Below are positions 10,416 to 40,335 of a stretch of 64,000 nucleotides of DNA, piece after piece; the stretch's first letter is position 1; each line of letters starts with the position of its first letter. The translations under genes were made by a program, and so were the position numbers. The DNA lies in IMG/VR virus record IMGVR_UViG_2721755756_000002. One strand, 5' to 3'. The notes below the pieces were generated by a model. That model worked only from the letters and a program-made list of their open reading frames with translations, made no database searches and was not told the origin of the DNA. This stretch comes from a virus (lineage: Duplodnaviria; Heunggongvirae; Uroviricota; Caudoviricetes).

Positions 10416-10418
10416 GGG

Positions 10419-18550: not shown

Positions 18551-18638
18551 TGTTAATATATTACATAAGAGCAGAAATGCTCTTTAAAAACCAATTTCCA
18601 GAATTACGGAATTTGTAGATGGATAAAAGGAGAAAAGG

Positions 18639-22270: not shown

Positions 22271-22888
22271 TTGATGAACAATGTAGTAATTGGATTAAGT
22301 GGAGCTGCAAGAGCTGGTAAAGACACTACAGCAATAATGATAAAGCATATCTTAAAAAGCTCTTTTGAAAAAAAGACGTGCTTATTAGCTTATGCAGATT
22401 ATCTAAAAATGATATGCATGAAGAATTTTGGATATGTAGATAAAAGAACAGATCGTAAAGTCTTACAGGACTTTGGTGAGAATGTACGTAAAGAGAACGA
22501 GGATTTCTGGATGTCAACGACATGGTTTACAATAGACCAATTTAGAAATTTATTTGACGTTTTTATTATAAGCGATGTCAGATATGAAAATGAGTTACAT
22601 CCATATCCATGGAATGTTGTTTACCCTTTTATCAATGTACTTGTAAAGAGAGATACATCAGGGCTACTTAATGATGAAGAAGCTGCTCATGAAAGTGAAG
22701 TAATGGCTCATGATGGTGACGAAAGCAAGTATGATTTTATCATTAACAACAATGGAACAATGGAAGAAACATACGCACAAGTGCTAAAAATGGTCAATGA
22801 AATCATGGATAGATGGGATGAGTGGTTCACAGAATTAAAAGCCAAAAATCCTGAAGGGAGTGCAAGCGATGCGTTACAGGGAGAATAA
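22271..22888 (+). CDS. deoxynucleoside monophosphate kinase-like P-loop protein
   Basis: GLSGAARAGKDT resembles the T4 gp1 dNMP kinase P-loop (SGxxRSGKDT). Confidence 0.5.
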   Translation: MMNNVVIGLSGAARAGKDTTAIMIKHILKSSFEKKTCLLAYADYLKMICMKNFGYVDKRTDRKVLQDFGENVRKENEDFWMSTTWFTIDQFRNLFDVFIISDVRYENELHPYPWNVVYPFINVLVKRDTSGLLNDEEAAHESEVMAHDGDESKYDFIINNNGTMEETYAQVLKMVNEIMDRWDEWFTELKAKNPEGSASDALQGE

Positions 22889-23033
22889 GCTCAACAATGA
22901 TAATATAAACTCTTTCATTAAAGAAGTTAAAAAGAATGGAGTATTGCACTTGGTGACTTGTTGCAAAAATGGAAATTACTTTGCGATTTACAGTGGTGAG
23001 CATGTCAACTTACAGAATATCGGGAATTGATAA

Positions 23034-24425
23034 ATGGTAGAGTATACAGCAGTAACCTCTGAGGGCGTTGTAATAGGAGCACTAATGAATGATGTTAAGC
23101 TCATTCTGGCATTAAAGGAGCTTAAACCAGATTTCTTCACACACCCTGCGTATAAGATTTTATATCTAACGATAAGAAAATTGTTTAGAGATGGTTCAAC
23201 AGAAATAGATATTCTTGATGTTTATGCTTTCTTGGAATCAAGTAAGAAGTATTTTAAGATTATTGAAGATGAAGGTGGCGTAGATTTTCTTGACACCTTA
23301 TATGGTATGGGAGAAGGTTATACTCTCGACATGCTAAAACCTCACGTATATAACATTTGCAGATGTGCTTGCAGGAATGAAGTAAATGATGTGATAATCG
23401 GGCTTCAAGACTATATAAGCAATGCAGAAAACTATTCGATAAGAGAAATCTTTGACGAAATTGAATCAAGATTCCTCTCATTAAAAGGAAAATATTCTAC
23501 AGGACATAAAATGGATCTACTTGGAGAAAGGCTAGACAACGTTTTAGAGGAACTTGAAAGAAATTCGCATAAAGAATTTTGTGGATTCCCAACTGGGTTT
23601 CCATTAGTAGATAAATTCTTCACATACGAAAAGGGGGAGCTTGTTATCTTAGCAGCTCCTGCCAAATTTGGTAAATCACAGTTTGTCACAGATGCCGTAT
23701 ATCGTCTCTGTATAAGAAATAAAGTTCCTATGTCTGTTATAGATAGTGAGTTGTCAGATAAATTGTTCACGTTGAGACTGATTGCTCGAATCATGGAGGT
23801 TAACTTCTCTTTTATCAAAACAGGGAAGTACAAAGAATATGACTGGGCTGTTAAGAAATTCAATGAAGCCGAGGAATTGATTAGAAATAGCCCTCTTATT
23901 CACCAATATATTTCTGGATGGGCGAATGAAGAAGTTTACAGTGAAATAAAAAGAACCACCATACAAAACAACATTCAAATCGTCTTTTGGGATTATCTCA
24001 AGGTTGATGACCTTGGTGACAACAAGAAAGAAAATGTTGAGTTAGCTAAAATGACGAATTTTTTGAAAAACAAAGTAGCTGGCGAATTAAATATTGCCGT
24101 TGTAGCTATGGCTCAAACTTCTGATTATAGTAAGCAAGAGGGCTCATTGAGACTTTGGGGCAGTAACCAAATCAAGCAGTTTGCATCAACTATTGCTTAT
24201 TTTGTAAAAAAGAACAAAGAACAAGTTGCAAGAGATCTCGATGCTGATGTTGGAGGTGACTCCTATTTACATGTCAAGGAAAATCGTAATGGACCTTCGA
24301 TGGATGATGAGGAATTTGGTATAAATTTCTGTACAAACAAAGCCAAAGCAATATTTGAACAGGCGGATCAGCAATGTAAAGAAGTTCAAGAGATTCTTGC
24401 ATCATATGAAGTAAAAGAGCGGTGA
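23034..24425 (+). CDS. DnaB-like replicative helicase
   Basis: DnaB N-terminal domain; Walker A LAAPAKFGKSQF; Walker B IVFWDYLKVDDLG; RecA-fold C-terminal half. Confidence 0.75.
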   Translation: MVEYTAVTSEGVVIGALMNDVKLILALKELKPDFFTHPAYKILYLTIRKLFRDGSTEIDILDVYAFLESSKKYFKIIEDEGGVDFLDTLYGMGEGYTLDMLKPHVYNICRCACRNEVNDVIIGLQDYISNAENYSIREIFDEIESRFLSLKGKYSTGHKMDLLGERLDNVLEELERNSHKEFCGFPTGFPLVDKFFTYEKGELVILAAPAKFGKSQFVTDAVYRLCIRNKVPMSVIDSELSDKLFTLRLIARIMEVNFSFIKTGKYKEYDWAVKKFNEAEELIRNSPLIHQYISGWANEEVYSEIKRTTIQNNIQIVFWDYLKVDDLGDNKKENVELAKMTNFLKNKVAGELNIAVVAMAQTSDYSKQEGSLRLWGSNQIKQFASTIAYFVKKNKEQVARDLDADVGGDSYLHVKENRNGPSMDDEEFGINFCTNKAKAIFEQADQQCKEVQEILASYEVKER

Positions 24426-24612
24426 TTGTAAACAAATGAAGCGTAATTTATATTTTTGTGTTTACGATCTACGTGACAATGAACTTTGCGTTGGATCATT
24501 TGATAACAAAGAGGATTTGTGCAAAATGCTTGGTATAAAGATTCAGTATCTAAGTCGCATCATGCAACGAGACGGTGTATACAAGAGCCGATATAAAATT
24601 GTCATAAAGTAG

Positions 24613-25617
24613 GTGGAATATCATGTGAAGTTAGATAGTCAAGCAATTATAGAAGCTGCAGACCCATACATCACAGATATTCTTGACAAGTTGGGCATGG
24701 AATGGATGCAGGAAAGCTCTTGGTTAGCTACACCTTGTATATTCCACGGCGGTACTAATTTCAAACTTAAATATAAAAACCTTAAATTCTATTGCTTCAG
24801 CGAATGTAATAAAAGCTATAGCGTAATTGACGTTGTAAAAAAGGCATTAGACTTAGACTTTGTAGCAGCAATGAAATGGTTGTGTAGTGAATTAGGATTA
24901 TCAGCAAATGATTATGTCGTAAGTGATAAAAAGATCAGATCACGAAAGAATTTGAAATTGATGAAGAGACTATCAAAGAAGAAGTCTCATACTGAATATA
25001 AGCAAGTAGATCAGCTAATTCTAAATGACATTATTCCTTATTCACATCCATATTTATTAAATCAGGGGTTCTCTGATAACACATTAAGGTACTTCAATAT
25101 AGGATTCTGTTTATATGGAGAATTAGAAAATAGGGTATGTTTTCCAATTGATGCACCTGATGGAACAATCATAAGTATATCTGGTAGGGCAATAGATGGA
25201 GCTGAACCAAAATATTTAATCATTGGTAATACGTTTAAGAATTTGACTTTGTATAACTATTCAAGAGCTAAAAAAGAGGCAATTGAAAGAGGCTATGTAA
25301 TATTGGTCGAGGGGTTTAAATCTGTTATGAAATTACATGAATTTGGATATAAAAATTCTGTAGCTTGTATGGGAAGTAGTATTGATGATAAGCAGATGAA
25401 GCTGCTTCTAAAATTAGGGGTGATAATAGTAGTTTGTGGTGACAACGACAAGACAGGAAAATTGTTAAATCAAAAGGTATATAACATGTGTTATAAGTTT
25501 ACAAAAGTGATTAAGCTGCCAATGAGTAAATATACAGAGAAGGAAGCTGATAGCATTGCTGATTTGGACAATGATGCAATATTTGAATTAGTTGATGATT
25601 TGGATGGAATCAAATAG
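24613..25617 (+). CDS. DnaG-type DNA primase (zinc-binding + TOPRIM)
   Basis: CHC2-like CIFHGG...CFSEC; TOPRIM VILVEGFKSVMKL...GDNDKTG. Confidence 0.75.
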   Translation: MEYHVKLDSQAIIEAADPYITDILDKLGMEWMQESSWLATPCIFHGGTNFKLKYKNLKFYCFSECNKSYSVIDVVKKALDLDFVAAMKWLCSELGLSANDYVVSDKKIRSRKNLKLMKRLSKKKSHTEYKQVDQLILNDIIPYSHPYLLNQGFSDNTLRYFNIGFCLYGELENRVCFPIDAPDGTIISISGRAIDGAEPKYLIIGNTFKNLTLYNYSRAKKEAIERGYVILVEGFKSVMKLHEFGYKNSVACMGSSIDDKQMKLLLKLGVIIVVCGDNDKTGKLLNQKVYNMCYKFTKVIKLPMSKYTEKEADSIADLDNDAIFELVDDLDGIK

Positions 25618-25918
25618 AGGAGGATATATTATGAATACGAGATTTAATATAGGTGATACAGTTTATCCAATTAACGTGGTTGATGCTTACGTTGGAGGAG
25701 CACAGGTTATAGAGTACATTACTGCAGGCGAAAAGGGGACATTCTATAGTCTCACAGTATGGCAAAATGTAAAAGCTTCGTTATGTTTTAGGTCTTTCGA
25801 GGAAGCTAAAGAAAACCTGCTAAAAATGATGGCTGAAGACTTTAGTGAAAAATTAAAAACAGTTATAGATTCAGTTGACGAAACCAGATGTGATGATCCA
25901 TATGAAGACTTTGAATGA
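25592..25918 (+). CDS. hypothetical protein (likely start about 25631)
   Basis: ORF with AGGAGG RBS before the internal Met. Confidence 0.4.
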   Translation: MMIWMESNRGGYIMNTRFNIGDTVYPINVVDAYVGGAQVIEYITAGEKGTFYSLTVWQNVKASLCFRSFEEAKENLLKMMAEDFSEKLKTVIDSVDETRCDDPYEDFE

Positions 25919-26228
25919 AGTTATTGATTCTCTATATAAAAAATATAGTAAGTACGGCATTACAAAAGAATTTATAAAAAGGCAGCTTGATGATGGGTTT
26001 AAAGCAGGGCTGAGTTTAGAACTGATGCATGTTACTTTAAGATTGATGTTAGCAGATCATTATGACGAAGATGAGTTATTTGATACTCATGATATGGCAG
26101 TTCTGCTTGACGTGAGCGATTTTGAGGCTTCAAAGATTATTGAGGAACAAAAGGCAAAGTTTGAAGAACAAGGTATTGATACAAGTGACATGATTTGGAA
26201 GAAACCACCACGTCATTTGATGTCATAG
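25875..26228 (+). CDS. hypothetical protein
   Basis: 117-aa ORF. Confidence 0.45.
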   Translation: MTKPDVMIHMKTLNEVIDSLYKKYSKYGITKEFIKRQLDDGFKAGLSLELMHVTLRLMLADHYDEDELFDTHDMAVLLDVSDFEASKIIEEQKAKFEEQGIDTSDMIWKKPPRHLMS

Positions 26229-26235
26229 AAGGAAG

Positions 26236-26547
26236 GTGAAGGTAATGGAAGGTTTAGTCAAGGTAACGTATAACGATGACAGGATAACGGTATCAGCAAG
26301 GGAGTTACATGAATTCTTTGGAGTTTCAACAAGGTACAACGACTGGTTCAAGCGGATGTGCGAGTATGGCTTTGAAGAAAACGTTGACTTTCAGGCTATT
26401 ACTCAAAAAAAAGTAACAGCTCAAGGGTGTAAATTTTTTAACACCCTAGCAAAACAAGAACTTCAAGACTTTCAAATTACGATCGATAAGGGAAACTTGC
26501 ATGATTGTGTTTTCACCAATAAGAAAGGTGGCGTATCTTATGCATGA
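26236..26547 (+). CDS. AntA/AntB-like antirepressor N-terminal domain protein
   Basis: ELHEFFGVSTRYNDWFKRMCEYGFEENVDF matches the AntA pattern. Confidence 0.5.
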   Translation: MKVMEGLVKVTYNDDRITVSARELHEFFGVSTRYNDWFKRMCEYGFEENVDFQAITQKKVTAQGCKFFNTLAKQELQDFQITIDKGNLHDCVFTNKKGGVSYA

Positions 26548-27313
26548 ATTGCAAATATTTGAAAATTCACAGTTCGGCAGTTTGAGAGTTACTGAAATAA
26601 ACGGGAAGATATATTATTGCGGGACAGACGTTGCGAGAGCATTAGGATATACGAAACCAAACAATGCAATAAATCAACATTGTAGGTATACCCTAAAACA
26701 GGGCATACCTCATCCCCAAAATCCTACAAAGAAAATTGAAATGTCCTTTATTCCAGAAGGCGATGTATACAGATTGACAGCACGAAGTAAGCTGCCGCAG
26801 GCTGTTGAATTTGAGTCATGGGTATTTGACACAGTGTTACCATCTATCAATAAAAATGGTGGATATTTAGCTGGACAAGAAAACATGACTCCTGCAGAAA
26901 TTGTTGCGCAGGGATTGCTGGTCGCACAGAAGATCATTGATGAAAAGACACAACTTTTACAGGCTCAACAAGTTGAACTAGAAGCACTTAAACCCAAAGC
27001 GGATTATTGTGACATAATTCTGAATTGTAAAGACTGTGTGACCATATCACAAGTAGCAAAGGACTATGGATTTACTGCAAATCACATGAACAAATACTTA
27101 CATGAGCAGGGCGTACAATACAAAGTTAACAAACAATGGGTTCTATATTCAAAACATGCAGACAAAGGTTACGTTGAGTCTGATACTACATACAAGGAAG
27201 ACCGATATGGGGTTTCACATGCTTATGTGAATACTAAGTGGACTCAAAAAGGACGCTTATTCATTTATGACCTGTTGAAAGAAAATGGAATCCTTCCATT
27301 GGTGGAACGATGA
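26501..27313 (+). CDS. Bro-N / KilA-C phage antirepressor
   Basis: N-terminus ELQIFENSQFGSLRV...CGTDVARALGY (Bro-N); KilA-C-like C-terminus. Confidence 0.65.
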   Translation: MIVFSPIRKVAYLMHELQIFENSQFGSLRVTEINGKIYYCGTDVARALGYTKPNNAINQHCRYTLKQGIPHPQNPTKKIEMSFIPEGDVYRLTARSKLPQAVEFESWVFDTVLPSINKNGGYLAGQENMTPAEIVAQGLLVAQKIIDEKTQLLQAQQVELEALKPKADYCDIILNCKDCVTISQVAKDYGFTANHMNKYLHEQGVQYKVNKQWVLYSKHADKGYVESDTTYKEDRYGVSHAYVNTKWTQKGRLFIYDLLKENGILPLVER

Positions 27314-28587
27314 ACTTAGATAAGACTCAGGAAGCAATTGTTAACAGCAATGCTTCTAAAATTATCGTGAATGCAGGAGCTGGCTCGGGGAAAACAAGGG
27401 TACTTATTGAGCGTATTGTCAGATTACTAAATGAAGGTGTCGAATCAACTTCTATTGTAGCAATTACGTTTACTAATATGGCAGCTGATGAAATGAAGAA
27501 ACGCATCTCTGAGTACGTTAACTGTTCAGGCATGTTTATTGGGACGATACATTCATTCGCAAATACAATTTTAAAATCGTCAGGGGAAGACTATCAGTTG
27601 TTTACTGATGAAACTAAAAATTACTATATGAGCGTACTCATTAAGAAATATGCAAAATATCTGAGCTATAAAAAGTATTTAGAGTTTGAAAAAGTGAGAA
27701 GCAGAGAATTACTTGGTTTGACGAATAAAAAGCGTTCTATAGATATACTTAATTATGATGAGTACAAGGAATATGAGCGCTTAATGAAGTTGGAACCTGT
27801 TGAGAACTACCCAGAAACGATTACAAGCATGAAAAAGAAGCTTAACGCAATCAGTTTTGATGAACTCATTACAAAAGCAACCTCGTATTTCAGTAAAAAT
27901 GGTAGCAAAATCTCGTATTTATTTGTAGATGAATTTCAGGATGTAGGACATATGGAATACGAGTTTCTTGAAGCTTTGAATGCTGATAATTGCTTCCTAG
28001 TAGGGGATGACTGGCAGTCGATTTTTAGCTTCAAAGGAGGATGTGTTGATATCTTCATTAAAATATTCAATAGTCCGGAATGGGAATCTTACATTATGGC
28101 GAATAATTATAGATGTGGTAGTGAAATTTTAGATTATGCTAATACAGTTATTCATCAGGCTGGGGACATTATTGAAAAAGAAGTCATATACAAGAGTGGA
28201 AAAGAAGGGGAAGTTATCATTCAACCTAAAAGATTTTTTATGGATGTGATAAATGTCATACATAAAGATGATTATGGTAAATGGGCAGTCCTTGTCAGAA
28301 CAAATAAGGAGCTTGAAAGTATTGCAGGAAGACTTGAATATGAGGGAATTCCATTCATGACATTTAAGAAATCAGATTATAGTCTTGAAGAGATGAATAA
28401 GATGCTTAAAGAGAATAAGGTTAAGGTTTTGACAGTCCATACATCTAAAGGGTTAGAATTTGACAATGTGATTTTGTATGGCAATTGGTATCTGCATGAA
28501 CCGAGTTACAGAAGAAATTCTGATGAACGTAAGGTCATGTATGTAGGAATGACAAGAGCAATAAATAATCTTGTTATTCAGAATTGA
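27310..28587 (+). CDS. compact UvrD/PcrA-like SF1 DNA helicase
   Basis: Walker A GAGSGKTRVL; motif II LFVDEFQDVGH; motifs V-VI VHTSKGLEFDNVILYG...VGMTRA. Confidence 0.75.
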   Translation: MNLDKTQEAIVNSNASKIIVNAGAGSGKTRVLIERIVRLLNEGVESTSIVAITFTNMAADEMKKRISEYVNCSGMFIGTIHSFANTILKSSGEDYQLFTDETKNYYMSVLIKKYAKYLSYKKYLEFEKVRSRELLGLTNKKRSIDILNYDEYKEYERLMKLEPVENYPETITSMKKKLNAISFDELITKATSYFSKNGSKISYLFVDEFQDVGHMEYEFLEALNADNCFLVGDDWQSIFSFKGGCVDIFIKIFNSPEWESYIMANNYRCGSEILDYANTVIHQAGDIIEKEVIYKSGKEGEVIIQPKRFFMDVINVIHKDDYGKWAVLVRTNKELESIAGRLEYEGIPFMTFKKSDYSLEEMNKMLKENKVKVLTVHTSKGLEFDNVILYGNWYLHEPSYRRNSDERKVMYVGMTRAINNLVIQN

Positions 28588-28882
28588 AGAGAGGCTTAGG
28601 ATGGTAACAGTGAGTATTGTATTAAGTATTGTGTTTGGTGTTGCTACGTTTGCAGCTACGTTGGTAGGACTTAGAAAAGAGTTTAATGGCAAAATGATAA
28701 ATTCAGAAGATCTTTCATTTATAGCATTTATTTTCTTTGTTAGTGAGTTTATTGCGATCACTATAGGACTTTTCTGGTTTGTTGTTATTCCAATTATTAT
28801 CATAGTCGGTGGGGTATTATTGTTTATATACTGGAACACATTCAAACAGTTTTGGAAGGAGTGGAAAGATGGCAGAAATTAG
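28571..28882 (+). CDS. small two-TM membrane protein
   Basis: two hydrophobic helices. Confidence 0.45.
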   Translation: MLFRIEERLRMVTVSIVLSIVFGVATFAATLVGLRKEFNGKMINSEDLSFIAFIFFVSEFIAITIGLFWFVVIPIIIIVGGVLLFIYWNTFKQFWKEWKDGRN

Positions 28883-29162
28883 TTATGGTGTCAGTATGAT
28901 ATTTTCTATAGCCGCCCCTGTCGTTACGATTTTCATAATAAAGAATTATTATAGAAATAAATGTACACGCGAAGTAGATGGCTATGACATCGTTCTGACA
29001 CTTATGATTATTGTTTTCTCTATATTTTGCGGAGCTTTTATTGGAGTATTATGGTTTATCATTGTCCCGAATATTTTGATTGGTACAGCTATAGTAAAGT
29101 TTATATTTCCAGATAAGACAAAGAAAATGTGGAAAGACTTTAAGAAAATGGTGACTAAATGA
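28809..29162 (+). CDS. small two-TM membrane protein (paralogue-like of 28571-28882)
   Basis: similar architecture; motif FIGVLWFIIVP resembles TIGLFWFVVIP in the preceding protein. Confidence 0.45.
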   Translation: MGYYCLYTGTHSNSFGRSGKMAEISYGVSMIFSIAAPVVTIFIIKNYYRNKCTREVDGYDIVLTLMIIVFSIFCGAFIGVLWFIIVPNILIGTAIVKFIFPDKTKKMWKDFKKMVTK

Positions 29163-29206
29163 AGTTGAATAAAGGGTTAAAAAAATAAGGAAAGGAAATA
29201 GAAAAA

Positions 29207-29722
29207 ATGAAGAAAGTTGAAATAGGAGATATTGTAAGAGCTAATAAGTTGTCTTTTGTGTATAGAATCACAACACTAGAAAACAAGTGGGTTGGGAGAG
29301 TTACAGCTGTTAATGAAGATGGTTCTTTCAATGCTAAAACTATTGAGTCTGCATTAGATAATTATGGACGATGTTACCTTAACTTAGAACCAAGATACTT
29401 TGATTTGGTTAAAAGACTTAAGAGGGACTGTGTGTTGGTTTCAGATCAAACCACAATACTATTTGATGAAGATGGTAAAAAACATGTGTCAAAGTGTAGC
29501 AATGAAGAATTTGATATTGAAAAGGGTATTATGATGTGTCTTTGTAAAAAACATGGATATACATACCAAGATATAAGAAGGCTCCTTAAAAATGTAGAAT
29601 TTAAAGAAGTAGAGAGGCGAGGTAGTGTACTATCCAATTTCGTAGCATTTTGCGAGAATCCACTAGCCTCTGGAACAAAATTTCAAGACACGAGGGATAT
29701 AGATGCCAACGAAGATATTTAA
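29207..29722 (+). CDS. hypothetical protein
   Basis: 171-aa ORF with RBS. Confidence 0.5.
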   Translation: MKKVEIGDIVRANKLSFVYRITTLENKWVGRVTAVNEDGSFNAKTIESALDNYGRCYLNLEPRYFDLVKRLKRDCVLVSDQTTILFDEDGKKHVSKCSNEEFDIEKGIMMCLCKKHGYTYQDIRRLLKNVEFKEVERRGSVLSNFVAFCENPLASGTKFQDTRDIDANEDI

Positions 29723-30677
29723 AACATTCCTTGATAAGAATGGGAGTGAATTTAGAAGACTGGCTGTTTCCTACTCTCAATTAGACACTTTTCTTACATG
29801 CCCAAGAAGGTGGATGTATAGATATTTACAAGGGTATGGGAAAAGTGATGACACTGAATCAACACAGTTGGGAACACAAGTACATGCATCAATTGAAGAA
29901 TACTGTAAACGCTTGTCTGAAGGCTATGAATGGACGATTGCTGAAGCTGTTGATCTAGTACAAAGCAATCTCAATAAGCGAACGATCAAGTTTAAAGATA
30001 TTGATGATGAAATCGTTGAGCAGCACAAAGCAATGATGGAAGGTCTAGTGACTGGCGATGGAGAATTAGCAGAATTACTTAATAAGTGTGATGTGTTAGC
30101 CCAAGAACTTGAATTTAGATTGCCGATAAAACTGCCTTTTAAAGTACGTGATAAACAAAAGAATTTGTATGATGAAGTTATATTAAACGGGTTTATAGAT
30201 CTAGTGCTTAAAGACCGAGATACAGGAGGTATTATCGTAATTGACCATAAAACGGGGAAGTCTTTATTCAAGCCAATTAAGCTAAGAACTAACTTGCAGC
30301 TCCCTATTTATTCGCTTGTTATTCAAAGTGTGTACGGTAGACTACCTGAACGTTGCTGTTATTACTTTACTAGGTTTGACCAGCTGCAGGATGTACAGCC
30401 TTTAGCGCTTGACGATAACAGTGCGGAGTGTGTTTATTTTAAAACAGGCAAAAGAAAAGGACAATTAAAATCTAAGCAAAGAACTGTTAAGGATATTGAA
30501 ACTGAATTACTTTCAATATTCAAAAGAATGTACACGTCTAGTACATACACCACTTCAAGTACGCCACTTTGTTCGTGGTGCGAATTTGGAGCATATGGAG
30601 ACTTAAGATGTGATGATGCTCAATTTTATAGAAGAAGCGATATAGAATTACCAACTCATAATAGGGTGTCAATATGA
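29703..30677 (+). CDS. PD-(D/E)XK nuclease (Cas4/RecB-like) with C-terminal Cys cluster
   Basis: SYSQLDTFLTCPRRWMYRYL N-terminal motif; IDLV...IDHKTGK core; C-terminal CSWCEFGAYGDLRCDD (Fe-S-like). Confidence 0.6.
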   Translation: MPTKIFKTFLDKNGSEFRRLAVSYSQLDTFLTCPRRWMYRYLQGYGKSDDTESTQLGTQVHASIEEYCKRLSEGYEWTIAEAVDLVQSNLNKRTIKFKDIDDEIVEQHKAMMEGLVTGDGELAELLNKCDVLAQELEFRLPIKLPFKVRDKQKNLYDEVILNGFIDLVLKDRDTGGIIVIDHKTGKSLFKPIKLRTNLQLPIYSLVIQSVYGRLPERCCYYFTRFDQLQDVQPLALDDNSAECVYFKTGKRKGQLKSKQRTVKDIETELLSIFKRMYTSSTYTTSSTPLCSWCEFGAYGDLRCDDAQFYRRSDIELPTHNRVSI

Positions 30678-30724
30678 TTTTTTTTAAAAGCCCAGAATTG
30701 TGCAAATTGTAGACGAAAGAAGAG

Positions 30725-31390
30725 GTGGACAGTATTAACGTATATAAAGATGAAAAGGTTTTGGTTGTTGAAAATAAAGACCTTGCTGCTTGGGGAAGGG
30801 TATCTGATAACGATACAAAGGCACTTATAAATGCAGTGCAGCATCATGGTTTCTTCAAGGATAGAACCCTCGTTGAAAGCGATACAGAGCTAAAACAGGT
30901 CATCCCTTATATTGTGCTTGAATGTAATGGAAAATACCTTGTAACGAAGCGAATTAAGGGCGATGAGCGATTGGTAAATCAGTATTCGATCGGTGCCGGT
31001 GGACATGTAAATTTAGACGATTATGTAAAAGGTGCAGGAGCAATCGAGGTTATTGACTTTCAAGCTACAATTACTAATTGTGTTGAGAGAGAACTGGCAG
31101 AAGAGACAACTTATAAAGGAGATTGTCATTTCAAAGCGATTGGAGCTTTCACAGATGATAAAGAAGAGGTATCAAAAGTACATATTTGCTATTTGGTTAA
31201 AATGAGCCTGTCAGAGCAGGTACAGATAAGGGAAACAGACAAACTTGAAGGCTCTTGGTTAGAGGTTGAGGAACTACGTAATTTAATTAGCAAGATGGAG
31301 AATTGGAGTGTTATAGCGATTGAGATGCTTGGAATATTGAAAACTCCAAAGAAAAGAAAGCGTAGAACGAAGAAGGTGCAGGTATGTTAG
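30725..31390 (+). CDS. possible Nudix-like hydrolase
   Basis: GGHVNLDD...ERELAEETTY loosely resembles a Nudix box; basic C-terminal tail. Confidence 0.35.
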   Translation: MDSINVYKDEKVLVVENKDLAAWGRVSDNDTKALINAVQHHGFFKDRTLVESDTELKQVIPYIVLECNGKYLVTKRIKGDERLVNQYSIGAGGHVNLDDYVKGAGAIEVIDFQATITNCVERELAEETTYKGDCHFKAIGAFTDDKEEVSKVHICYLVKMSLSEQVQIRETDKLEGSWLEVEELRNLISKMENWSVIAIEMLGILKTPKKRKRRTKKVQVC

Positions 31391-31559
31391 TTATAAATTT
31401 CCTCGTTTATGCGTTAGCAATAATGTTCTTTGCGATAGTGGTATATGGTGCTTTCAGATTGATGATGAGAGGTCTGAAGGATGTTCATAAATACGAACAA
31501 GAATTAAAGCATGAAAAAGAATTAGAAAATGAAAAAAGAGAAAAGGAAGGTAAAGAAAA

Positions 31560-32450
31560 ATGAGTAAAACAAAAAGCGTTGCATTAGGATTAGGAATCGG
31601 AGCAGTTGTATTAGTTGGTGGTGGAGCATTAGGTATGGTAGCCACGGGAAGCTTTGTGACAATTAACCCCGGAGAAGTTGGCGTTGTCTATGATTTAAGA
31701 AATGGTACGTTGGATGACACTCTTCAGCAGGGCTTCCATGTTATTTCACCATTTCAGAATGTCAACAAATATAATGTTTCGCAGGAACAGTTGATGCTGA
31801 CATCCGATAAACCTTCAGATGTCGATGAAGATGATTTTGAAGATCACCATATTGACGGTGTTGCAAAAGGTGGAGGAGCTATCAAAGTAAATTTGCAGGT
31901 TCAGTACAAATTTGACGAGGAACGTGTACCTGAAATCTACCAGAAATTTAAAGGTAAAACAGGCGAATATATTGTAGAGCATTACATGTCTAACAAGATT
32001 ATCTCTTCTACAAAAGCTATTATTGCGAATTATAGTGTTGAAGAGCTGTATCCGGTGACAGACAAAATCAATGAGGAATTGAAGAAACAACTGGATGATG
32101 AATTGAATAGTGCTTATGGTATCCGTATTGTAGAAGCAAATATCGTTAAGACAACACCAACAAAAGAGGTTATGAAGAAAATTGATGCTAAAGTGCAGGC
32201 AAAACAGGAGAAAGAGAAGGCAGAGTTGGATATGGCAACGGCCGAAGCGCAGGCAAATACTAACAAGGTAAAGGCTGAAGGTGAAGCAGCTGTAGCAATT
32301 GAAAAAGCAAAGGGACAGGCAGAGGCAAATCGTGTTGTAAGTCAGTCTATTACAAAAGAGTTGATTGAAATGAAGAATGCAGAAGCTCGTTTAAAACATG
32401 GATGGGTAGAAGTACAAGGTGCTGACTCTGTTGTCGTGAAAGGAAAGTAG
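31560..32450 (+). CDS. SPFH/band-7 (prohibitin/stomatin-like) membrane protein
   Basis: N-terminal TM helix; SPFH core; Ala/Glu/Lys-rich coiled-coil C-terminus. Confidence 0.65.
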   Translation: MSKTKSVALGLGIGAVVLVGGGALGMVATGSFVTINPGEVGVVYDLRNGTLDDTLQQGFHVISPFQNVNKYNVSQEQLMLTSDKPSDVDEDDFEDHHIDGVAKGGGAIKVNLQVQYKFDEERVPEIYQKFKGKTGEYIVEHYMSNKIISSTKAIIANYSVEELYPVTDKINEELKKQLDDELNSAYGIRIVEANIVKTTPTKEVMKKIDAKVQAKQEKEKAELDMATAEAQANTNKVKAEGEAAVAIEKAKGQAEANRVVSQSITKELIEMKNAEARLKHGWVEVQGADSVVVKGK

Positions 32451-32453
32451 TGG

Positions 32454-33359
32454 ATGGATTTTAAAAAATATCAGCATGTAGGTCGTTTAGGGACTACATC
32501 GACAGAAGGAATATTGAACGGCTATGTCTATGTTCAGCCCAAAATAGATGGTTGTAATACGACCATTTACATTGATGATAATGACTGTATACATATTGCA
32601 GGGAGGAATAAAGAATACGAGAAAGGAACAAAAAATGATAGGGGTCTTATAAACTATATAGAATCGCATATAGAGTATAGAAAATTCTTGTTAGAACATA
32701 AGGGAACAAGACTGTATATGGAGTATTTAGTCCCTCATTCACTTCGCACTTACTTTGATGATGCTTGGAGAGTTCCATATGTATTTGATGCTATGAAAGA
32801 AGATGAATCTTATTGGGTTCCAAGCACGTTACACGCTGAATTAGAATCATATGGAATCCCTTATGTACCTAATTTGTGGGAGGGTGACGGAAGTGATTTA
32901 ACTGCAGAAAAAATCAAGGAATTGGTAAATGGTAATAAATTTTTAGTTGATCCAGAAAAAGGAGAGTTTGGTGAGGGAATCGTAATTAAAAACTACACTT
33001 ACAAAAATCCATATGGGGATATTATCTGGGCGAAAGTCCTGCATGATGAGTTCAATAATCATTCCAATGTAAAAGGAAGACTAAAGGATGTATCTAATAG
33101 CGAATTAGAAAATGAGATAGCTACTTTGTATATCACTAAAGATTTTGTTAATAAAGAATATGCAAAAATCCTAAATGACGATCCGTTTATTGAAAGGCAT
33201 AAGGTTATTCCAATGCTGTTATCAACATGCTGGCATGAGTTTATATGTGAAGAAACATATAATTTTGTAAAAAAATTCAGATGTCCAAAGGTAGATTTTA
33301 AAACATTAAATCAGGTAGTAATAAAAAGGATAAAGGAATTGAAACCAGAGTTGTTTTAA
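32454..33359 (+). CDS. ATP-dependent polynucleotide ligase, Rnl2-like (KxDGxN motif I)
   Basis: motif I QPKIDGCN (lysine-adenylate); size about 300 aa. Confidence 0.55.
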   Translation: MDFKKYQHVGRLGTTSTEGILNGYVYVQPKIDGCNTTIYIDDNDCIHIAGRNKEYEKGTKNDRGLINYIESHIEYRKFLLEHKGTRLYMEYLVPHSLRTYFDDAWRVPYVFDAMKEDESYWVPSTLHAELESYGIPYVPNLWEGDGSDLTAEKIKELVNGNKFLVDPEKGEFGEGIVIKNYTYKNPYGDIIWAKVLHDEFNNHSNVKGRLKDVSNSELENEIATLYITKDFVNKEYAKILNDDPFIERHKVIPMLLSTCWHEFICEETYNFVKKFRCPKVDFKTLNQVVIKRIKELKPELF

Positions 33360-33452
33360 TCCCTGAAATGATTGATTGTAGCGTTGTAATAGTAGTGTCT
33401 AACACATAGTCATTTAATATTACAACGCTTCTTATATAAAGCGATAGGAGGC

Positions 33453-33692
33453 TTGAAAATGAATATAATGCTAATTTGCGATGAGTATTGTGGGAAGATA
33501 GAAGGTTTTATGTTTAATAGTTCAAATAAATATCGAGCACATGTAATTTTAAACGATAGTTCAAAATCTTTTTGGTTAGATTTGACAAAATATAACATTA
33601 CAAAAGAAGATATCAAGAAGGAAATGAAAAAGCTTAAAACAAGTGAAAGTGATAGCAGTTGTGTGATTTGGATTGATATGACGGAGGATTAG
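33453..33692 (+). CDS. hypothetical small protein
   Basis: 79-aa ORF with GGAGG RBS. Confidence 0.4.
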   Translation: MKMNIMLICDEYCGKIEGFMFNSSNKYRAHVILNDSSKSFWLDLTKYNITKEDIKKEMKKLKTSESDSSCVIWIDMTED

Positions 33693-33694
33693 TT

Positions 33695-33901
33695 ATGAGA
33701 TTATTTTGGGAAAAGCCTCATGAGAAGAAATATATATGTGATGTAGAAGACCGAGCTAAGGCAATAAAAATGATTTATGATATCTTAGATTCTTTATATA
33801 TAAAAATTGACATATTGGTGGTAGACAGAGATGATGCAGGTAATACCATAATTGACATAAATCATAAAAATGGAATCTTTCATTACGTCTTGGAGGAATA
33901 A
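33695..33901 (+). CDS. hypothetical small protein
   Basis: 68-aa ORF. Confidence 0.4.
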   Translation: MRLFWEKPHEKKYICDVEDRAKAIKMIYDILDSLYIKIDILVVDRDDAGNTIIDINHKNGIFHYVLEE

Positions 33902-36900
33902 TGAGTACGTCATTACATACCCACAGCTGTTTATCACTTGGTGATTCTACAGCGACTATTGAAGAAATTGTAGGCTTCGCAAAAGAGAACGATCATGAAG
34001 CTGTATGCATATCTGACCATGGTACTCTAGCAGCAATGATTCAGTCACATAAATTAGCAAGGAAGGCAGGTATCAAATGTTTAACAGCTTGTGAAATCTA
34101 TGAGGTTGATGATGATGAATGGCGGTCTGATACAAAGGAATATAGTCAGCCAAGATACCATTTATTATTGATAGCAAAAAATAATATAGGGCTTCACAAC
34201 CTGATTCAAATAGTTTCTTATGCGAATACTGATGGTTTTTACAAAAAACCAAGAATTGATATCAACAGGATTAAAAACAATGGTTGGGGTGAAGGTCTAA
34301 TTTGCTGCACGGCTTGTCAGGCAGGTCGCTTGAGTAAATATTTAACACAGAAAATGGAGGAAGAGGCGTGGAAATACGCAGATGATCTGTGTGGGACATT
34401 CGATAATGTTTATTGTGAAATACAATCACATAATACACCAGAACAAGCTAAAGCAAATAGGCTCATATATGACTTTGCCATTGAAAACGACTTACCATAT
34501 GTTATTACTACAGATGCACATATGATAAGAAAAGAAGATATGAAATATCATTCGATGTTTGTTGAAGCTATTGGACATAGAGAAGTAGGAGAAGCGTACA
34601 TAGATTGCTATATGCAGACAGACAGCGATATATATAATACTTTGGGCAACCAGTTTACGAAAGGGCAGATAAAAAAGGGGATTGAAGCAACTACTGAAAT
34701 AGCGGATATGTGCGAGCAGGTTGATGTTGGTCTTGATAATGACAATCAAATGCCTCATATAGATGTACCTGATGATTTTTTCGATTCTGAAGACTATCTC
34801 AGATATCTGTGTTATAAGACCTTTAACGAGAAATTTGGGCATATGAACAAGGAAGAGCAGCAAAAGAGAAAAGACAGAATAGAAATGGAAATACCAGTGC
34901 TTGTCGAACTTGATTTTGTTGATTACCTTATAATGCTGAGTATGATAGCTGATGAATGTAGAAAACGAGATATTCCATTAGGGTACAGTCGTGGATCAGG
35001 GGGTAATTGTCTGTGCTTATATATGCTAAATGTTACACAGATAGACAGTGTAAGATGGGATTTAGATTTTTCACGATTTGCAAACATTGGCAGAAAAGGC
35101 ACCTTGGCAGATTATGATTTTGATGTCAGTAAAATACATCGTCCTCAAATGGTGCAAGTATTCAGAGATTTATTTGGGGAAGAAAACGTATGCAATATTT
35201 CAACCTACAATACATTTACAAACAAGGTAGCAATAAAAGACCTTGGCAAGGTCTTCAACGATAAACCTGATAGTCCATACTTCGGACAGATACCTCAGGA
35301 GCTGAGAGATCATGTTGCAAAAATCATACCAGTTATCAAAGTAGTAGACGAAAATGGAGAAGAAATTGAAAAAGATGTTGCCTTAAAAGATGCAATAAAA
35401 GGGAATGAGGAATTAGAAAATTTACACAAAAAATACCCAGCTTGGTTTGACAGTGTAATTCATTTAAGTGGACTTCCTAAATCTCGTGGATGTCATGCAT
35501 CGGCCATAATGATAACGCCTAAACCTGTTACTGAATATTGCTCTATCTGTAACAATAAAGATGGCGAAGTTATGTATGAAGATGAAATGCACTCTTTAAT
35601 GGACGATATCAAGCTTATCAAAATGGATTGCTTGGGTCTCAAAAACTTGAGCGTTGTCGATATGACACTCAATCTATCAGGGCTGACTTGGAGTGATGTT
35701 GATATAAATACTTTAAACCTTAAAGATGAAGCTGTGTACAACGAAATATACAAGACAGGGTATACAGCTGGTGTTTTCCAGATGGAGTCACTAGAAGCTC
35801 GTAGGATGCTTATAGCAGCTAAGGCGGATAACATTGAGGATATCATCGTAGTTAATAGTGCAAATAGACCAGGCACAAAAGAATCTTTTCCCGACTACTG
35901 TCACAATAAATTACATCCAGAAGATATCACAGTCATTCATGATGATCTAAAAGAAATTTTCAAGCAATCACATAGCGTGTTGCTTTATCAGGAACAAGCA
36001 CTGGCATTACTCCGATATGCAGGGTTCCCTGAAGAAGAAGTGGAAACTGGACGAAAAGCGATTGGAAAGAAGCTTGAAGCGGTTATGAGGAGCCTGAAAA
36101 AGAAATTCAAGAATGGCCTTAAAGAAAGAGGTTGGCTGGACGAGCAAATTGAGACTATATGGAAGCTGCTAAAAAAACAATCTGAGTATTGCTTTAACAG
36201 AGGTCATGCAGTTGCTTATAGCTTGTTGTCATATCTGACTGCATATCTAAAAACACATTATCCGATAGAATACATGACCGCAAGCTTATCGTTAGAGGAA
36301 GATAAAGAAAAATCAGCAGCCCTCCTTAATGAGCTAAAGAGAATGGGAATGAAGTTAGATAACCCAGATATAAATTTATCAAGTGAAACATTTACGCCTG
36401 ATAAGGAGAATAATAGAGTCTTGTATGGCCTTGGATTTGTAAAAGGATTGTCAAGTAAAGGCTATGAAGCTGTTATGAATAATAGACCATATAGTGACTT
36501 TGAAGACTTTCTTGATAAAGTATATTCAAAAGTTGATATATCTGACGTAAATGCTCTGATTAAAGCAGGTGCTTTTGGAACTGAGTGTAAAATTGATTGT
36601 TTTAGAATGTATTATACAAAAAGGTTTTGGGATAAAAAAATAGATAGGAAAATAGCAAAGCATCCTATAAAAAATGCAAAAAAAGCTTTCATTGAAGAAG
36701 CTTTTAAATTAGGTCTGACTACTCCAGAAAATAAAGATAATAAAGAGTTGGTAGTAAAGTGTATAAATCAATATAGGTTAGAAAATGGATGGGAAGTATT
36801 TAAAAAGAAATACTGTGAAGGGAATGAATTAGAGTGGGAAATGGAGACTTTAAACACATTCCTATCTGGTGATCCATTTGAAGGCGTTTTCATACCTAAT

Positions 36901-37224
36901 TGGGATAACGTTAAGGATGATGAAGATGGATGGCTTGGCGGTGTTATTGTCAATGTTAAAGATGTAATTGTAAAAAACGGTAAGAATAAGGGTCAAAAGA
37001 TGTGTTTTGTGAATCTTGATATAAATGGTGAAATGGGCGATTTGGTAGTTTTCTCTAATAATTATTCTAAGTTCTCAGATATTTTAAAGAATGGGAAATG
37101 CGTTGTATGCAGAGTGACTAAAGACGCTTCTGCAAAATATAAAGGAATCATTCAAGGAGTATCGCTTTTAAGTAAATACCTAGAGCAGACCAAAACGGTG
37201 CAGCAGAAAAGAGGGAAAAAGTGA
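33901..37224 (+). CDS. dnaE: DNA polymerase III alpha subunit (DnaE-type, N-terminal PHP domain), phage-encoded
   Basis: PHP motif LHTHSCLSLGDS...ISDHGT; 1107 aa; polymerase core region GSGGN... Confidence 0.85.
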   Translation: MSTSLHTHSCLSLGDSTATIEEIVGFAKENDHEAVCISDHGTLAAMIQSHKLARKAGIKCLTACEIYEVDDDEWRSDTKEYSQPRYHLLLIAKNNIGLHNLIQIVSYANTDGFYKKPRIDINRIKNNGWGEGLICCTACQAGRLSKYLTQKMEEEAWKYADDLCGTFDNVYCEIQSHNTPEQAKANRLIYDFAIENDLPYVITTDAHMIRKEDMKYHSMFVEAIGHREVGEAYIDCYMQTDSDIYNTLGNQFTKGQIKKGIEATTEIADMCEQVDVGLDNDNQMPHIDVPDDFFDSEDYLRYLCYKTFNEKFGHMNKEEQQKRKDRIEMEIPVLVELDFVDYLIMLSMIADECRKRDIPLGYSRGSGGNCLCLYMLNVTQIDSVRWDLDFSRFANIGRKGTLADYDFDVSKIHRPQMVQVFRDLFGEENVCNISTYNTFTNKVAIKDLGKVFNDKPDSPYFGQIPQELRDHVAKIIPVIKVVDENGEEIEKDVALKDAIKGNEELENLHKKYPAWFDSVIHLSGLPKSRGCHASAIMITPKPVTEYCSICNNKDGEVMYEDEMHSLMDDIKLIKMDCLGLKNLSVVDMTLNLSGLTWSDVDINTLNLKDEAVYNEIYKTGYTAGVFQMESLEARRMLIAAKADNIEDIIVVNSANRPGTKESFPDYCHNKLHPEDITVIHDDLKEIFKQSHSVLLYQEQALALLRYAGFPEEEVETGRKAIGKKLEAVMRSLKKKFKNGLKERGWLDEQIETIWKLLKKQSEYCFNRGHAVAYSLLSYLTAYLKTHYPIEYMTASLSLEEDKEKSAALLNELKRMGMKLDNPDINLSSETFTPDKENNRVLYGLGFVKGLSSKGYEAVMNNRPYSDFEDFLDKVYSKVDISDVNALIKAGAFGTECKIDCFRMYYTKRFWDKKIDRKIAKHPIKNAKKAFIEEAFKLGLTTPENKDNKELVVKCINQYRLENGWEVFKKKYCEGNELEWEMETLNTFLSGDPFEGVFIPNWDNVKDDEDGWLGGVIVNVKDVIVKNGKNKGQKMCFVNLDINGEMGDLVVFSNNYSKFSDILKNGKCVVCRVTKDASAKYKGIIQGVSLLSKYLEQTKTVQQKRGKK

Positions 37225-37415
37225 AGAATAAAAAGGAAGAAGCTCGGCGTAAGCTTAATGCTAGAGTCAAAACAATCAACTTGAATTATCAAAGACGGAA
37301 TCCAGATTCTCTGCTAAACGAAATGTTAAAAATAAAATTAAACAGATTTGAAAGCTATATTATCAAGAAACTGGTGCAGAGGAGTGTAAAGCGTGGAAGA
37401 AAAAAGAACAGGTAA
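37221..37415 (+). CDS. small basic protein
   Basis: K/R-rich 64-aa ORF; ATGA-coupled. Confidence 0.35.
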   Translation: MKNKKEEARRKLNARVKTINLNYQRRNPDSLLNEMLKIKLNRFESYIIKKLVQRSVKRGRKKNR

Positions 37416-37579
37416 AGGAATAATCATCCATAACTGGTGTAAAGATCAAATAACAATAGGGAAAATCTATCCAATATACATTAAGAATGGCAAGGATGGT
37501 ATTTACGATGATATTGGATGGTTCTTGCCAATGAATTTCTTGAATATCTTCGCACAATATGAGGAGTGTGTATTAGAAA

Positions 37580-38062
37580 ATGATATTTAGTATAGACCCG
37601 GGCAACGTGTATAGTGCATATTCAGTTTTAAATGAAGATTTAAGACCTATTGAGTTTGGCAAAGTAGAAAATCAAGAACTATCTGAAATTATAAAGAATC
37701 ATTATGAATTGGATCATACGAGGATGCCATTTGTAATCGAAATGATTGGACACTATGGCACAGGAATGCCTGCAGGAAAGACGGTGTTTGATACATGTGT
37801 ATGGATTGGAAGATTTACAGAGTTGTATCACCAATACACTGGTAAAGAACCTGTCTATATTATGCGTAGAGAAGAGAAGTTGAATCTATGTGGGAATATG
37901 AAAGCCAAAGATGGGAATATACGACAAGCATTGATAGATAGGTTCGGTGTTGTAGGCACAAAGAAAAACCCGGGGTGGTTCTATGGGGTTTCTAAAGATG
38001 TATGGGCTGCCATTGCTGTTGGAGTTTCGTATCATGATATTTATGAGGAGGAAAGAAAATGA
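37580..38062 (+). CDS. RuvC-like / RNase-H-fold Holliday junction resolvase candidate
   Basis: N-terminus MIFSIDPGNVYSAYSVL resembles the RuvC GIDPG motif. Confidence 0.45.
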   Translation: MIFSIDPGNVYSAYSVLNEDLRPIEFGKVENQELSEIIKNHYELDHTRMPFVIEMIGHYGTGMPAGKTVFDTCVWIGRFTELYHQYTGKEPVYIMRREEKLNLCGNMKAKDGNIRQALIDRFGVVGTKKNPGWFYGVSKDVWAAIAVGVSYHDIYEEERK

Positions 38063-39963: not shown

Positions 39964-40335
39964 ATGTTTAGATTGCTTCGAATTTGTGGTGTTAGAATGA
40001 CGGAAAGGGTATGGGTTCGTAGCCAAGACAGAACTTGTCTGTCATCATGCGATGATTTTTCAATAGAAGTTTATTATCAAGATAAAAAAACACATAAGAT
40101 ACTTGTAGAGTCTCTTTATGTAATGGGGTATGAAGAAAAATATGAGAAAATATTCTATATTAATAATTTAGGAGTCTACACTTCTGAAGAAAAAGCGCTA
40201 AGTGTATTAGATTGTATTGCTGAACATATATCACACAATACGAATGCTGTATTTCAAATGCCACAAGATGATGAGGTGAAGACTGTTAATGATTATCTCC
40301 AGAATCGTCTTCGCCAGATATTTGAGGGATCATAA
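39964..40335 (+). CDS. hypothetical protein
   Basis: 123-aa ORF. Confidence 0.45.
   Translation: MFRLLRICGVRMTERVWVRSQDRTCLSSCDDFSIEVYYQDKKTHKILVESLYVMGYEEKYEKIFYINNLGVYTSEEKALSVLDCIAEHISHNTNAVFQMPQDDEVKTVNDYLQNRLRQIFEGS

Follow-up and report, generated by a model that had tools for sequence, protein, structure and literature searches.

The DNA analysed here (hereafter the window) is a stretch of 64,000 nucleotides (nt) filed as IMG/VR virus record IMGVR_UViG_2721755756_000002, and our subject is a block of genes at positions 27310–33359 within it. A first-pass annotation, made from the letters alone, had read this block as one module of helicase, membrane proteins, Cas4-like nuclease, Nudix-like protein, SPFH protein and ligase, acting either as a replication accessory or as an embedded defence or counter-defence system. 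The whole block is 100% identical to Clostridium phage Amboise (ON453899.1; window position 27310 corresponds to record position 60271), a 77,323-bp prophage of [Clostridium] innocuum. The left end of Clostridium phage Maintenon (ON453900.1, record positions 56–19656) is matched by window positions 44400–64000, again at 100% identity. The window is a piece of the [Clostridium] innocuum chromosome carrying the right arm of Amboise and then the second prophage, Maintenon, in agreement with a report that strain I46 has two functional prophages side by side (PMC10197239). In vitro Amboise can be induced, and in OMM12 mice with colitis it expands within the virome (PMC10197239; bioRxiv 10.1101/2024.12.03.626644).

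Every open reading frame (ORF) called in the first-pass annotation was recovered on the + strand at the same coordinates, and the domains predicted for the block were confirmed by Pfam and PHROG profile matches. The listed genes are real, but a ninth one had been omitted, coding for a protein of 59 amino acids (aa) with a single transmembrane (TM) segment. The features of the block, and three flanking genes referred to below, are:

27310–28587, + strand: UvrD/PcrA/Rep-type SF1A helicase of 425 aa without a 2B domain (UvrD-helicase, E = 2.5e-50; UvrD_C, 3e-23)
28601–28882, + strand: tm1, small membrane protein with about three TM segments by hydropathy
28869–29162, + strand: tm2, small membrane protein with about three TM segments by hydropathy (weak match to phrog_15498 'membrane protein', 1.5e-3)
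29207–29722, + strand: 171-aa protein with a predicted N-terminal SH3/Tudor-like beta-barrel (AF2) and a conserved central region
29703–30677, + strand: stand-alone PD-(D/E)XK nuclease of the RecB/AddB/AdnA/Cas4 family with a four-Cys iron–sulfur (Fe-S) cluster (PDDEXK_1, E = 1.1e-30)
30725–31390, + strand: predicted TM1382-type Nudix-like hydrolase (NUDIX PF00293, 3.3e-5, 24.3 bits against a cut-off of 21.1; phrog_8902, 5.9e-36)
31384–31563, + strand: tm3, 59-aa protein with one TM segment and a Lys/Glu-rich tail; its gene overlaps the SPFH start (ORF list, hydropathy)
31560–32450, + strand: prohibitin/HflK-like SPFH (Band 7) protein with an N-terminal TM anchor and a coiled-coil tail (Band_7 PF01145, E = 5.5e-26)
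32454–33359, + strand: predicted Rnl2-like ATP-dependent ligase with a KIDGCN motif I (PF09414, E = 1.4e-16, 61.6 bits against a cut-off of 27; phrog_548, 4.1e-27)
33380–33429, + strand: hairpin, single copy in the window (free energy −26.2 kcal/mol, z −3.7)
19672–20772: Sak4-like annealing protein (AAA_24)
37580–38062: RuvC-like resolvase
40335–40805: polynucleotide-kinase-like gene, 156 aa

The block genes are tightly packed and co-oriented with the replisome genes. Overlaps occur at bro/helicase (4 nt), tm1/tm2 (14 nt), the 171-aa protein/nuclease (20 nt), Nudix/tm3 (7 nt) and tm3/SPFH (4 nt). The helicase gene stands between a Bro/ANT antirepressor gene and that of a small membrane protein, and two small ORFs separate the ligase gene from that of Pol III alpha. 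No terminator-like site was found on the + strand within 22000–38500, and no break in base composition is visible at the block. In GenBank the block already bears the labels helicase, hypothetical protein, exonuclease, 'lipoprotein' and RNA ligase, with Sak4-like protein, dNMP kinase, DnaB, primase, Pol III alpha, Holliday junction resolvase, Dcm methyltransferase and polynucleotide kinase in the flanks.

Nine related loci were compared with the window. The nuclease retrieved one of them from IMG/VR (L002), and homologues of Nudix protein and nuclease led to the other eight (L008, L009, L024–L026 and L028–L030); L027, a short fragment, is counted only when the six distant loci L025–L030 are meant. 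A search of viral contigs with Pol III alpha found no relatives. Window proteins were mapped onto the loci by tblastn, the view reaching about 10 kb to either side of the nuclease or Nudix gene. Nuclease identity is 82–87% in the close relatives L009, L024 and L008, which have the whole gene order in common with the window, 64% in L002 and 42–56% in the six distant loci. The order Sak4-like (AAA_24), dNMP kinase, DnaB, primase, nuclease is fixed in the relatives, and so are Nudix and Pol III alpha in the loci reaching far enough; the 21-kb stretch of L002 begins too late to show the Sak4 gene. The nuclease gene is present in all nine relatives and the Nudix gene in all eight that cover the region, and both are backbone genes of the replication arm. 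The helicase, present in L009 and L024, is absent from the syntenic region of 7/9 relatives, the ligase is absent from all three close relatives, L002 has the ligase without the helicase in the region covered, and the distant relatives show no homologue of either within the ±10 kb covered. The block is thus not inherited as a unit, since helicase and ligase vary independently of each other and of the rest, and the proposal of a single module is not supported. The comparison of gene content that the first-pass annotation had called for separates a core, nuclease and Nudix protein, from the accessory helicase and ligase, and its replication-accessory reading stands for the former pair, whose genes keep their synteny with those for DnaB, primase and Pol III alpha wherever a relative covers the region.

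In the six distant loci the nuclease gene lies directly 3' of the primase gene (6/6) and is followed by methylase, SAM-synthetase or NrdD/NrdG genes. Since these genes stand there between nuclease and Nudix genes, a functional coupling of the two was ruled out; their adjacency in Amboise is a by-product of absent intervening cassettes. Selection was compared through the ratio of non-synonymous to synonymous substitution rates (dN/dS), calculated according to Nei-Gojobori against L009, L024 and L008 for 15 genes and best read as a ranking. Values of 0.05–0.06 for the nuclease, 0.06–0.10 for the Nudix gene and 0.05 for the helicase, where present, compare with 0.03–0.07 for DnaB and 0.04–0.08 for Pol III alpha; the two 3-TM proteins and the 171-aa protein reach 0.26–0.35 (tm1, 0.26–0.27).

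The PD-(D/E)XK nuclease with a C-terminal Cys cluster was correctly recognised from the letters: in 32 homologues the motif residues D166, D181, K183, Q199 and Y203 and the cysteines C33, C290 and C293 do not vary, and C303 hardly does. When the AF2 model built with these 32 homologues (pLDDT 91.6) was searched against the PDB with Foldseek, the nuclease domain of AdnA ranked first (6ppr_A, E = 2.8e-11); 4cej_B was matched at 1.3e-8, and further matches were the Argonaute-associated Cas4-family protein ACE1, AddB, AddA, RecB, Dna2, RecE and Cas4. The modelled fold is that of an end-resection nuclease. The protein has the RecB motifs and four-Cys cluster by which CRISPR Cas4 is recognised, and Cas4 complexes are among its weaker fold matches; the Cas4 family model TIGR00372 is reached with 37.9 bits, under the cut-off of 65, over residues 24–73 only, and no cas gene is annotated in this phage arm.

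Pairs of an exonuclease and a Sak4-like recombinase have been described in phages (PMC3483164). Compared with the Sak4-exonuclease modules of Lopes et al. (2010), as cited there, Amboise likewise has a Sak4-like AAA_24 protein, a RecB-family exonuclease and a junction resolvase in one operon, with the nuclease conserved alongside replisome genes. Unlike in those modules, the Amboise nuclease gene lies about 9 kb downstream of the Sak4 gene instead of adjoining it, and its product carries a four-Cys cluster and is structurally nearest to the AdnA/AddB nuclease domains. Because of the nuclease fold, the Sak4-like annealase, the annotated Holliday junction resolvase and these described pairs, we infer a role of the nuclease in recombination-dependent replication.

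The Nudix-like protein passes the Pfam cut-off narrowly, and the assignment made from the letters is borne out by PDB entry 3e57 (TM1382; E = 8e-19 over residues 8–202), with homology over the full length. Its Nudix box is divergent: RELAEE is retained, and ERELAEET, corresponding to the REx2EE helix, can be read from the sequence as in TM1382, but about 25 residues separate GGHV from RELAEE, so that the canonical 23-residue box GX5EX7REUXEEXGU is not found; the loop of TM1382 is likewise extended. Homologues at 34–37% identity bear the JGI name 'predicted NUDIX family phosphoesterase', and one in Geobacillus phage GR1 lies among Pol III/PHP, dUTPase, thioredoxin and guanylate kinase genes. 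In four distant relatives the Nudix gene is downstream of anaerobic ribonucleotide reductase genes, immediately 3' of NrdG in L028 and L029 and 0.6–1.2 kb downstream in L030 and L026. This genomic link to ribonucleotide reductase is shared with the YmaB-type Nudix proteins of nrd operons; for YmaB of B. subtilis, encoded in such an operon, a preliminary dNTP pyrophosphohydrolase activity has been reported (PMC5960316). A role in nucleotide-pool control can be inferred for the Amboise protein.

The helicase had been called a minimal UvrD-like protein, and this description fits: residues 4–303 correspond to residues 12–318 of E. coli UvrD and residues 368–423 to 551–612, with 64 residues in place of the roughly 230 of UvrD (about 319–550) that have no counterpart, a stretch which we take to include the 2B domain. 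The SF1A signatures GAGSGKT, DEFQD, GDDWQSIF, TVHTSKGLEF and YVGMTRA are all present. Among the best 150 of more than 30,000 matches (E ≤ 1e-10), several dozen cluster representatives have this short form (about 415–480 aa) and align over their full length, so that the short form is a family. As to its relatives in other viral contigs (L010–L021), identity does not exceed 41%, and the four inspected, of 372–728 aa, stand in unrelated contexts with no homologue of the block nuclease seen nearby.

In L008 an in-frame helicase remnant of 34 codons (about 7623–7727) joins the N-terminal 13 residues (MSLDETQDVIINS) to the C-terminal 21 (DGRKVMYVGMTRAIKNLVIQN), and the nuclease–SPFH stretch of this locus is 95–99% identical in nucleotides to that of the helicase-bearing L024. 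L008 has lost the helicase by in-frame deletion. In the window helicase the residues NS flank both sides of the L008 junction, and they may mark a short repeat. The helicase is, as its distribution shows, an optional cassette.

The ligase had been described as Rnl2-like with a KxDGxN motif, in agreement with our data: K30-I-D-G-C-N is invariant in the three homologues and aligns with KIHGTN of T4 Rnl2, which is motif I with the adenylated Lys35. Searched against the PDB, the single ligase sequence retrieved noise only; a profile of the three sequences retrieved T4 Rnl2 best (1s68, 2hvq; 8e-5, residues ~19–171), then the Naegleria RNA ligase. T4 Rnl2 and the Amboise protein have in common an N-terminal nucleotidyltransferase domain, KxDGxN, a similar length and an extra C-terminal region, but the similarity is weak and confined to the nucleotidyltransferase domain; nick sealing is the predicted activity.

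The place of the ligase gene is a slot that varies among relatives. In L008 the SPFH stop codon abuts the sequence that comes after the ligase stop codon in the window, in L024 an AntA/ANT antirepressor gene occupies the slot, and the ligase genes of L002 and L022 have replication genes around them. The cassette boundaries are clean at stop codons, the slot after the SPFH gene being empty or filled with an AntA/ANT gene or the ligase, and the ligase is an optional cassette in this swap slot. The hairpin proposed to end the block does exist, with a perfect 12-bp stem (AGCGTTGTAATA / TATTACAACGCT) and an inner stem, but it lacks a U tract and was rejected as a canonical terminator on that ground. 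It was likewise rejected as a repeated operator, being single-copy in the window, and as a known RNA family, having no Rfam match. Its sequence is 90–96% identical in L008, L009 and L024, above most of the flanking coding DNA and without covariation, and it marks the fixed right border of the ligase/antirepressor/empty slot. The hairpin could serve in protein binding or RNA processing, or be associated with a promoter.

The SPFH/band-7 call made from the letters was confirmed (PF01145, 92.1 bits against a cut-off of 23.6; hydrophobic segment at residues 5–35), with PDB matches to prohibitin (6.2e-10) and QmcA (3.6e-6). The GenBank label 'lipoprotein' is unsupported, because the first 60 residues are free of Cys and hence hold no lipobox. 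Compared with L008, L009 and L024 the protein is 97% identical overall and 98.5% identical over residues 31–296, and its dN/dS of 0.012–0.020 is the lowest of the 15 genes, below Pol III alpha. Recent transfer was considered as the cause of the high identity and rejected: synonymous divergence (dS 0.8–1.2) is as high as in the neighbours, and the 97% amino acid identity therefore reflects constraint.

The small proteins encoded with it had been described as two two-TM proteins; they are membrane proteins indeed, but hydropathy fits about three TM segments in each, and they are paralogues (26% identity, E = 6e-14 in a small search). tm1 matches no Pfam, PHROG or PADLOC family, and tm2 resembles the TM pair directly 5' of the SPFH gene in L002. 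The 59-aa single-TM gene upstream of the SPFH gene is kept in L008, L009 and L024, and a like-shaped 50-aa protein precedes SPFH in L026. SPFH and small membrane partners occur in six of the seven genomes covering the region; L029 is without SPFH and has no clear membrane-protein gene between Nudix and Pol III. In L002 the SPFH gene lies upstream, directly after two TM genes; a contiguous trio of TM, TM and SPFH genes is found there and in L026, where the order is 3-TM, ~50-aa single-TM, SPFH.

Phage records with SPFH homologues number 433, the majority from phages of Staphylococcus, Bacillus, Enterococcus and Streptococcus, and the genomic context was inspected in three. The gene lies between those for SSB and RusA in Streptococcus phiST1, with a small 2-TM gene immediately 5', and about 2.7 kb downstream of a DNA polymerase gene in Listeria LWP01. 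In vB_EfaM_A2, of the Herelleviridae, NrdG immediately precedes it and thymidylate synthase is encoded two genes before that. Herelleviridae are, so far as is known, strictly lytic, and the presence of SPFH in them therefore favours a function in the lytic cycle over protection of the lysogen. The Amboise protein resembles HflK/C, QmcA, prohibitin-like SPFH proteins and PHROG 200 in its TM anchor, Band 7 domain, coiled-coil tail and the small membrane proteins nearby. Unlike HflK/C-type proteins, it stays far under the HflK equivalog cut-off (TIGR01933, 44.3 bits against 159.4), is encoded in a phage replication region and has no NfeD partner, none of the small membrane proteins matching NfeD in Pfam.

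The 171-aa protein upstream of the nuclease matches no family in Pfam, PHROG, PADLOC or NCBIfam. AF2 models residues 1–70 with pLDDT ~78–91 and the rest with low values, and Foldseek against the PDB retrieved generic SH3, Tudor and PWWP barrels, none at E ≤ 1e-3. The gene has a dN/dS of 0.27–0.29, and its relatives have 199 aa, with an extra C-terminal domain. The Amboise gene lacks ~134 nt relative to that of L009 (at 29612–29694), with loss of a C-terminal SH3-like repeat, and its product has gained an unrelated tail overlapping the nuclease start.

Some further observations concern the same arm in Amboise and its relatives. A tyrosine-recombinase-like gene lies at window positions 16122–17114, two genes upstream of the Sak4-like gene, and recurs at this position in the distant L025, L028, L029 and L030; Amboise also carries an integrase at the prophage end (42818–44200). 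The Pol III alpha gene, uninterrupted in Amboise, is split by HNH or GIY-YIG homing-endonuclease genes in L009 (12325–16416), and NrdD likewise in L026 (11280–14324) and L030 (13409–16532), which suggests mobile introns or inteins; in L002 (13213–16536) the Pol III alpha frame is broken by a ~20-nt gap without an endonuclease gene. The more distant relatives have, between Nudix and SPFH or Pol III, a gene of ~210–240 codons whose product starts MIKFE.TEV.GW..AIRGMRNP.NSW, usually preceded by a small SH3-like protein (L002 7103–7828; L026 17743–18465; L029 16157–16792; L030 19714–20367). It has no Pfam family on record, and the annotated Amboise neighbours show none alike, no dedicated search having been made. 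Upstream of the replication genes the more distant relatives carry a FolD-like methylene-tetrahydrofolate dehydrogenase/cyclohydrolase gene (L025 1470–2321; L026 2138–3031; L028 1534–2376; L029 1823–2677; L030 2038–2907), and in L028 SAM synthetase and several cytosine methylase genes follow the nuclease. Together these genes suggest a substantial phage investment in one-carbon and nucleotide metabolism.

Starting from the domain identities, conservation patterns, cassette boundaries and strengths of selection observed above, we read the block as an ordinary part, mosaic in make-up, of the early operon for replication, recombination and nucleotide metabolism in the temperate gut phage Amboise, neither one system nor a defence system, and give this reading a probability of roughly 0.7. 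The backbone nuclease most likely resects DNA ends and would so feed the Sak4-like annealing protein and the RuvC-like resolvase in recombination-dependent replication. The Nudix protein, most likely a (d)NTP pyrophosphohydrolase, would trim nucleotide pools; the dNMP kinase and, in the relatives, anaerobic ribonucleotide reductase would work in parallel. The dispensable 2B-less helicase may help the nuclease or the replisome with unwinding, and the Rnl2-like ligase, in its swap slot just upstream of the conserved hairpin, would seal nicks. As for tm1, tm2, the 59-aa protein and SPFH, they would, on our reading, build an oligomeric scaffold in the membrane that the phage needs early in lytic growth. 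HflK/C cages the FtsH protease; by analogy, a set of SPFH, two ~3-TM paralogues and a single-TM protein of ~50–60 aa might tether the phage replisome or nucleotide-supply enzymes to the membrane, or cage a host protease such as FtsH, a suggestion we make tentatively and hold to be rather improbable as it stands. Such a lytic membrane scaffold would explain both the constraint on SPFH and its recurrence in replication regions of temperate and Herelleviridae phages of Firmicutes.

The explanation that competes most closely, and partly overlaps with the preferred one, is that helicase and nuclease form a two-gene end-resection machine of AddAB/AdnAB type, with a UvrD-type motor and a RecB-type Fe-S nuclease acting in trans. 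The best fold matches of the nuclease are indeed domains fused to UvrD-type motors in AdnAB and AddAB, its RecB-type domain bears an Fe-S Cys cluster as in AddB, and the helicase has the expected SF1A signatures, is under purifying selection (dN/dS 0.05) and matches the AddA and RecB models of NCBIfam, though far below their cut-offs. The fused, obligately paired and co-inherited motor and nuclease of the known machines are, however, not what lies here: the genes are separate, with three others between them, the motor lacks the UvrD 2B region and there is no second motor-nuclease subunit. Furthermore, seven of nine relatives have the nuclease but no helicase in the syntenic region, L008 having deleted the helicase and kept the nuclease intact, and the helicase relatives inspected in other viral contigs show no such nuclease nearby. 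This explanation is possible, though less likely than not. That the block, or a subset such as helicase with nuclease or SPFH with its membrane partners, is a prophage anti-phage system protecting the lysogen is far less probable still. Defence genes are frequent in prophages, ACE1 ranks high in the fold search with the nuclease, and PADLOC gave strong helicase matches to GajB (4.6e-54) and to DRT helicase models, in a range down to 1e-55, with GajB or DRT making up all of the best 25 of 50 families, besides weak matches of the nuclease to Cas4, DruK and an Argonaute-associated Cas4-like nuclease. These matches probably reflect a general resemblance to UvrD helicases and RecB nucleases: UvrD, PcrA and Rep reach scores similar to those of GajB, and the GajB matches in the PDB cover only residues ~7–117. 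PADLOC found no complete system, nothing for SPFH, ligase or membrane proteins, and no GajA, HamA, reverse-transcriptase or Argonaute partner among the nine block proteins. The Gabija-like pair suggested earlier shares with GajB a short UvrD-type helicase and strong PADLOC scores, but no protein of the block matches GajA (the OLD-family ATPase-TOPRIM nuclease), the PDB matches are limited to the N-terminal ~110 residues and the gene sits in a replication operon. A Hachiman-like arrangement does not fit either, the helicase being of SF1A UvrD type and not an SF2 DExH HamB, and HamA having no match in the block; nor does an Nhi-like one, which is a single nuclease-helicase polypeptide, where the two ORFs here are separate, three genes apart, and most relatives are without the helicase. 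The block is in the middle of an operon, shares its direction with the replisome genes and shows no terminator-like site or composition break, nuclease, Nudix and SPFH are syntenic backbone in the relatives and not variable island content, SPFH homologues occur in the Herelleviridae, lytic so far as is known, and within the literature searched no paper ties SPFH proteins to anti-phage defence. A nuclease syntenic with replication genes and close to known recombination nucleases had been named at the outset as what would speak against defence, and this is essentially what was found, its model being closest to AdnAB/AddAB/RecBCD nuclease domains.

Two narrower alternatives concern the ligase. 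T4 Pnkp and Rnl1 reseal tRNAs cut by anticodon nucleases, and the Amboise ligase, with the polynucleotide-kinase-like gene at 40335–40805, could be an RNA-repair counter-defence that reseals tRNAs cut by host anticodon nucleases. A ligase of Rnl2 type, carried as an accessory cassette as counter-defence genes often are, and a kinase matching the bacterial Pnkp kinase domain (1.3e-14) and phrog_505 'polynucleotide kinase' make this a plausible role for one element of the block. The T4-type set of 5'-kinase and 3'-end healing co-inherited with the ligase is nevertheless not found: the kinase gene encodes a kinase domain only, with no phosphatase or cyclic-phosphodiesterase domain detected for 2',3'-cyclic phosphate ends, it lies 7 kb from the ligase, L008 keeps it without the ligase, and in L002 and L022 the ligase is among replication genes. 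On balance we regard RNA repair as unlikely. Slightly less credit still goes to the maturation of Okazaki fragments by nuclease and ligase, with Dna2-like removal of primers or flaps and sealing of the nicks. It is suggested because the nuclease adjoins the primase in relatives (directly 3' in six), Dna2 is among the structural matches, and neither the GenBank annotation of the arm nor the Pfam labels listed for the relatives include a Pol I, FEN or RNase H name. Yet most relatives are without ligase, the Dna2 match is weaker than those to AdnA and AddB, and host enzymes could do the same job, so that a Dna2-like lagging-strand role is a weaker alternative to recombination-dependent replication.

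Several points weigh against the reading of the block as a mosaic stretch of the replication operon, or soften parts of it. The biochemical roles given to all block genes are deduced here from the genes alone, and that proposed for the SPFH set is the weakest step. With dS of 0.8–2.3, near saturation, absolute dN/dS values are rough, the ranking being more robust. The relatives are metagenomic contigs, and calling a gene dispensable assumes that they are functional phages; the absence of helicase and ligase holds for ~10 kb on each side, and copies elsewhere in those genomes are possible. The link of the Nudix protein to YmaB is based on the JGI name of distant homologues and on the presumed membership of YmaB in the same family (COG4112), not on a direct alignment.

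With these reservations, a candidate defence island can be struck off the list. The block was already deposited and roughly annotated, and the novelty that remains is the constrained SPFH set and the hairpin at the slot border. The lineage (contigs of ~65–80 kb) is built of a fixed replication, recombination and nucleotide backbone and of slots swapped at gene boundaries, the swapped cassettes including helicase, ligase, antirepressors, methylases and ribonucleotide reductase. The wider reach lies in the SPFH membrane set, common in phages of Firmicutes and here under stronger purifying selection than the polymerase; Amboise, being inducible and expanding in colitis, could serve as a system for testing it.

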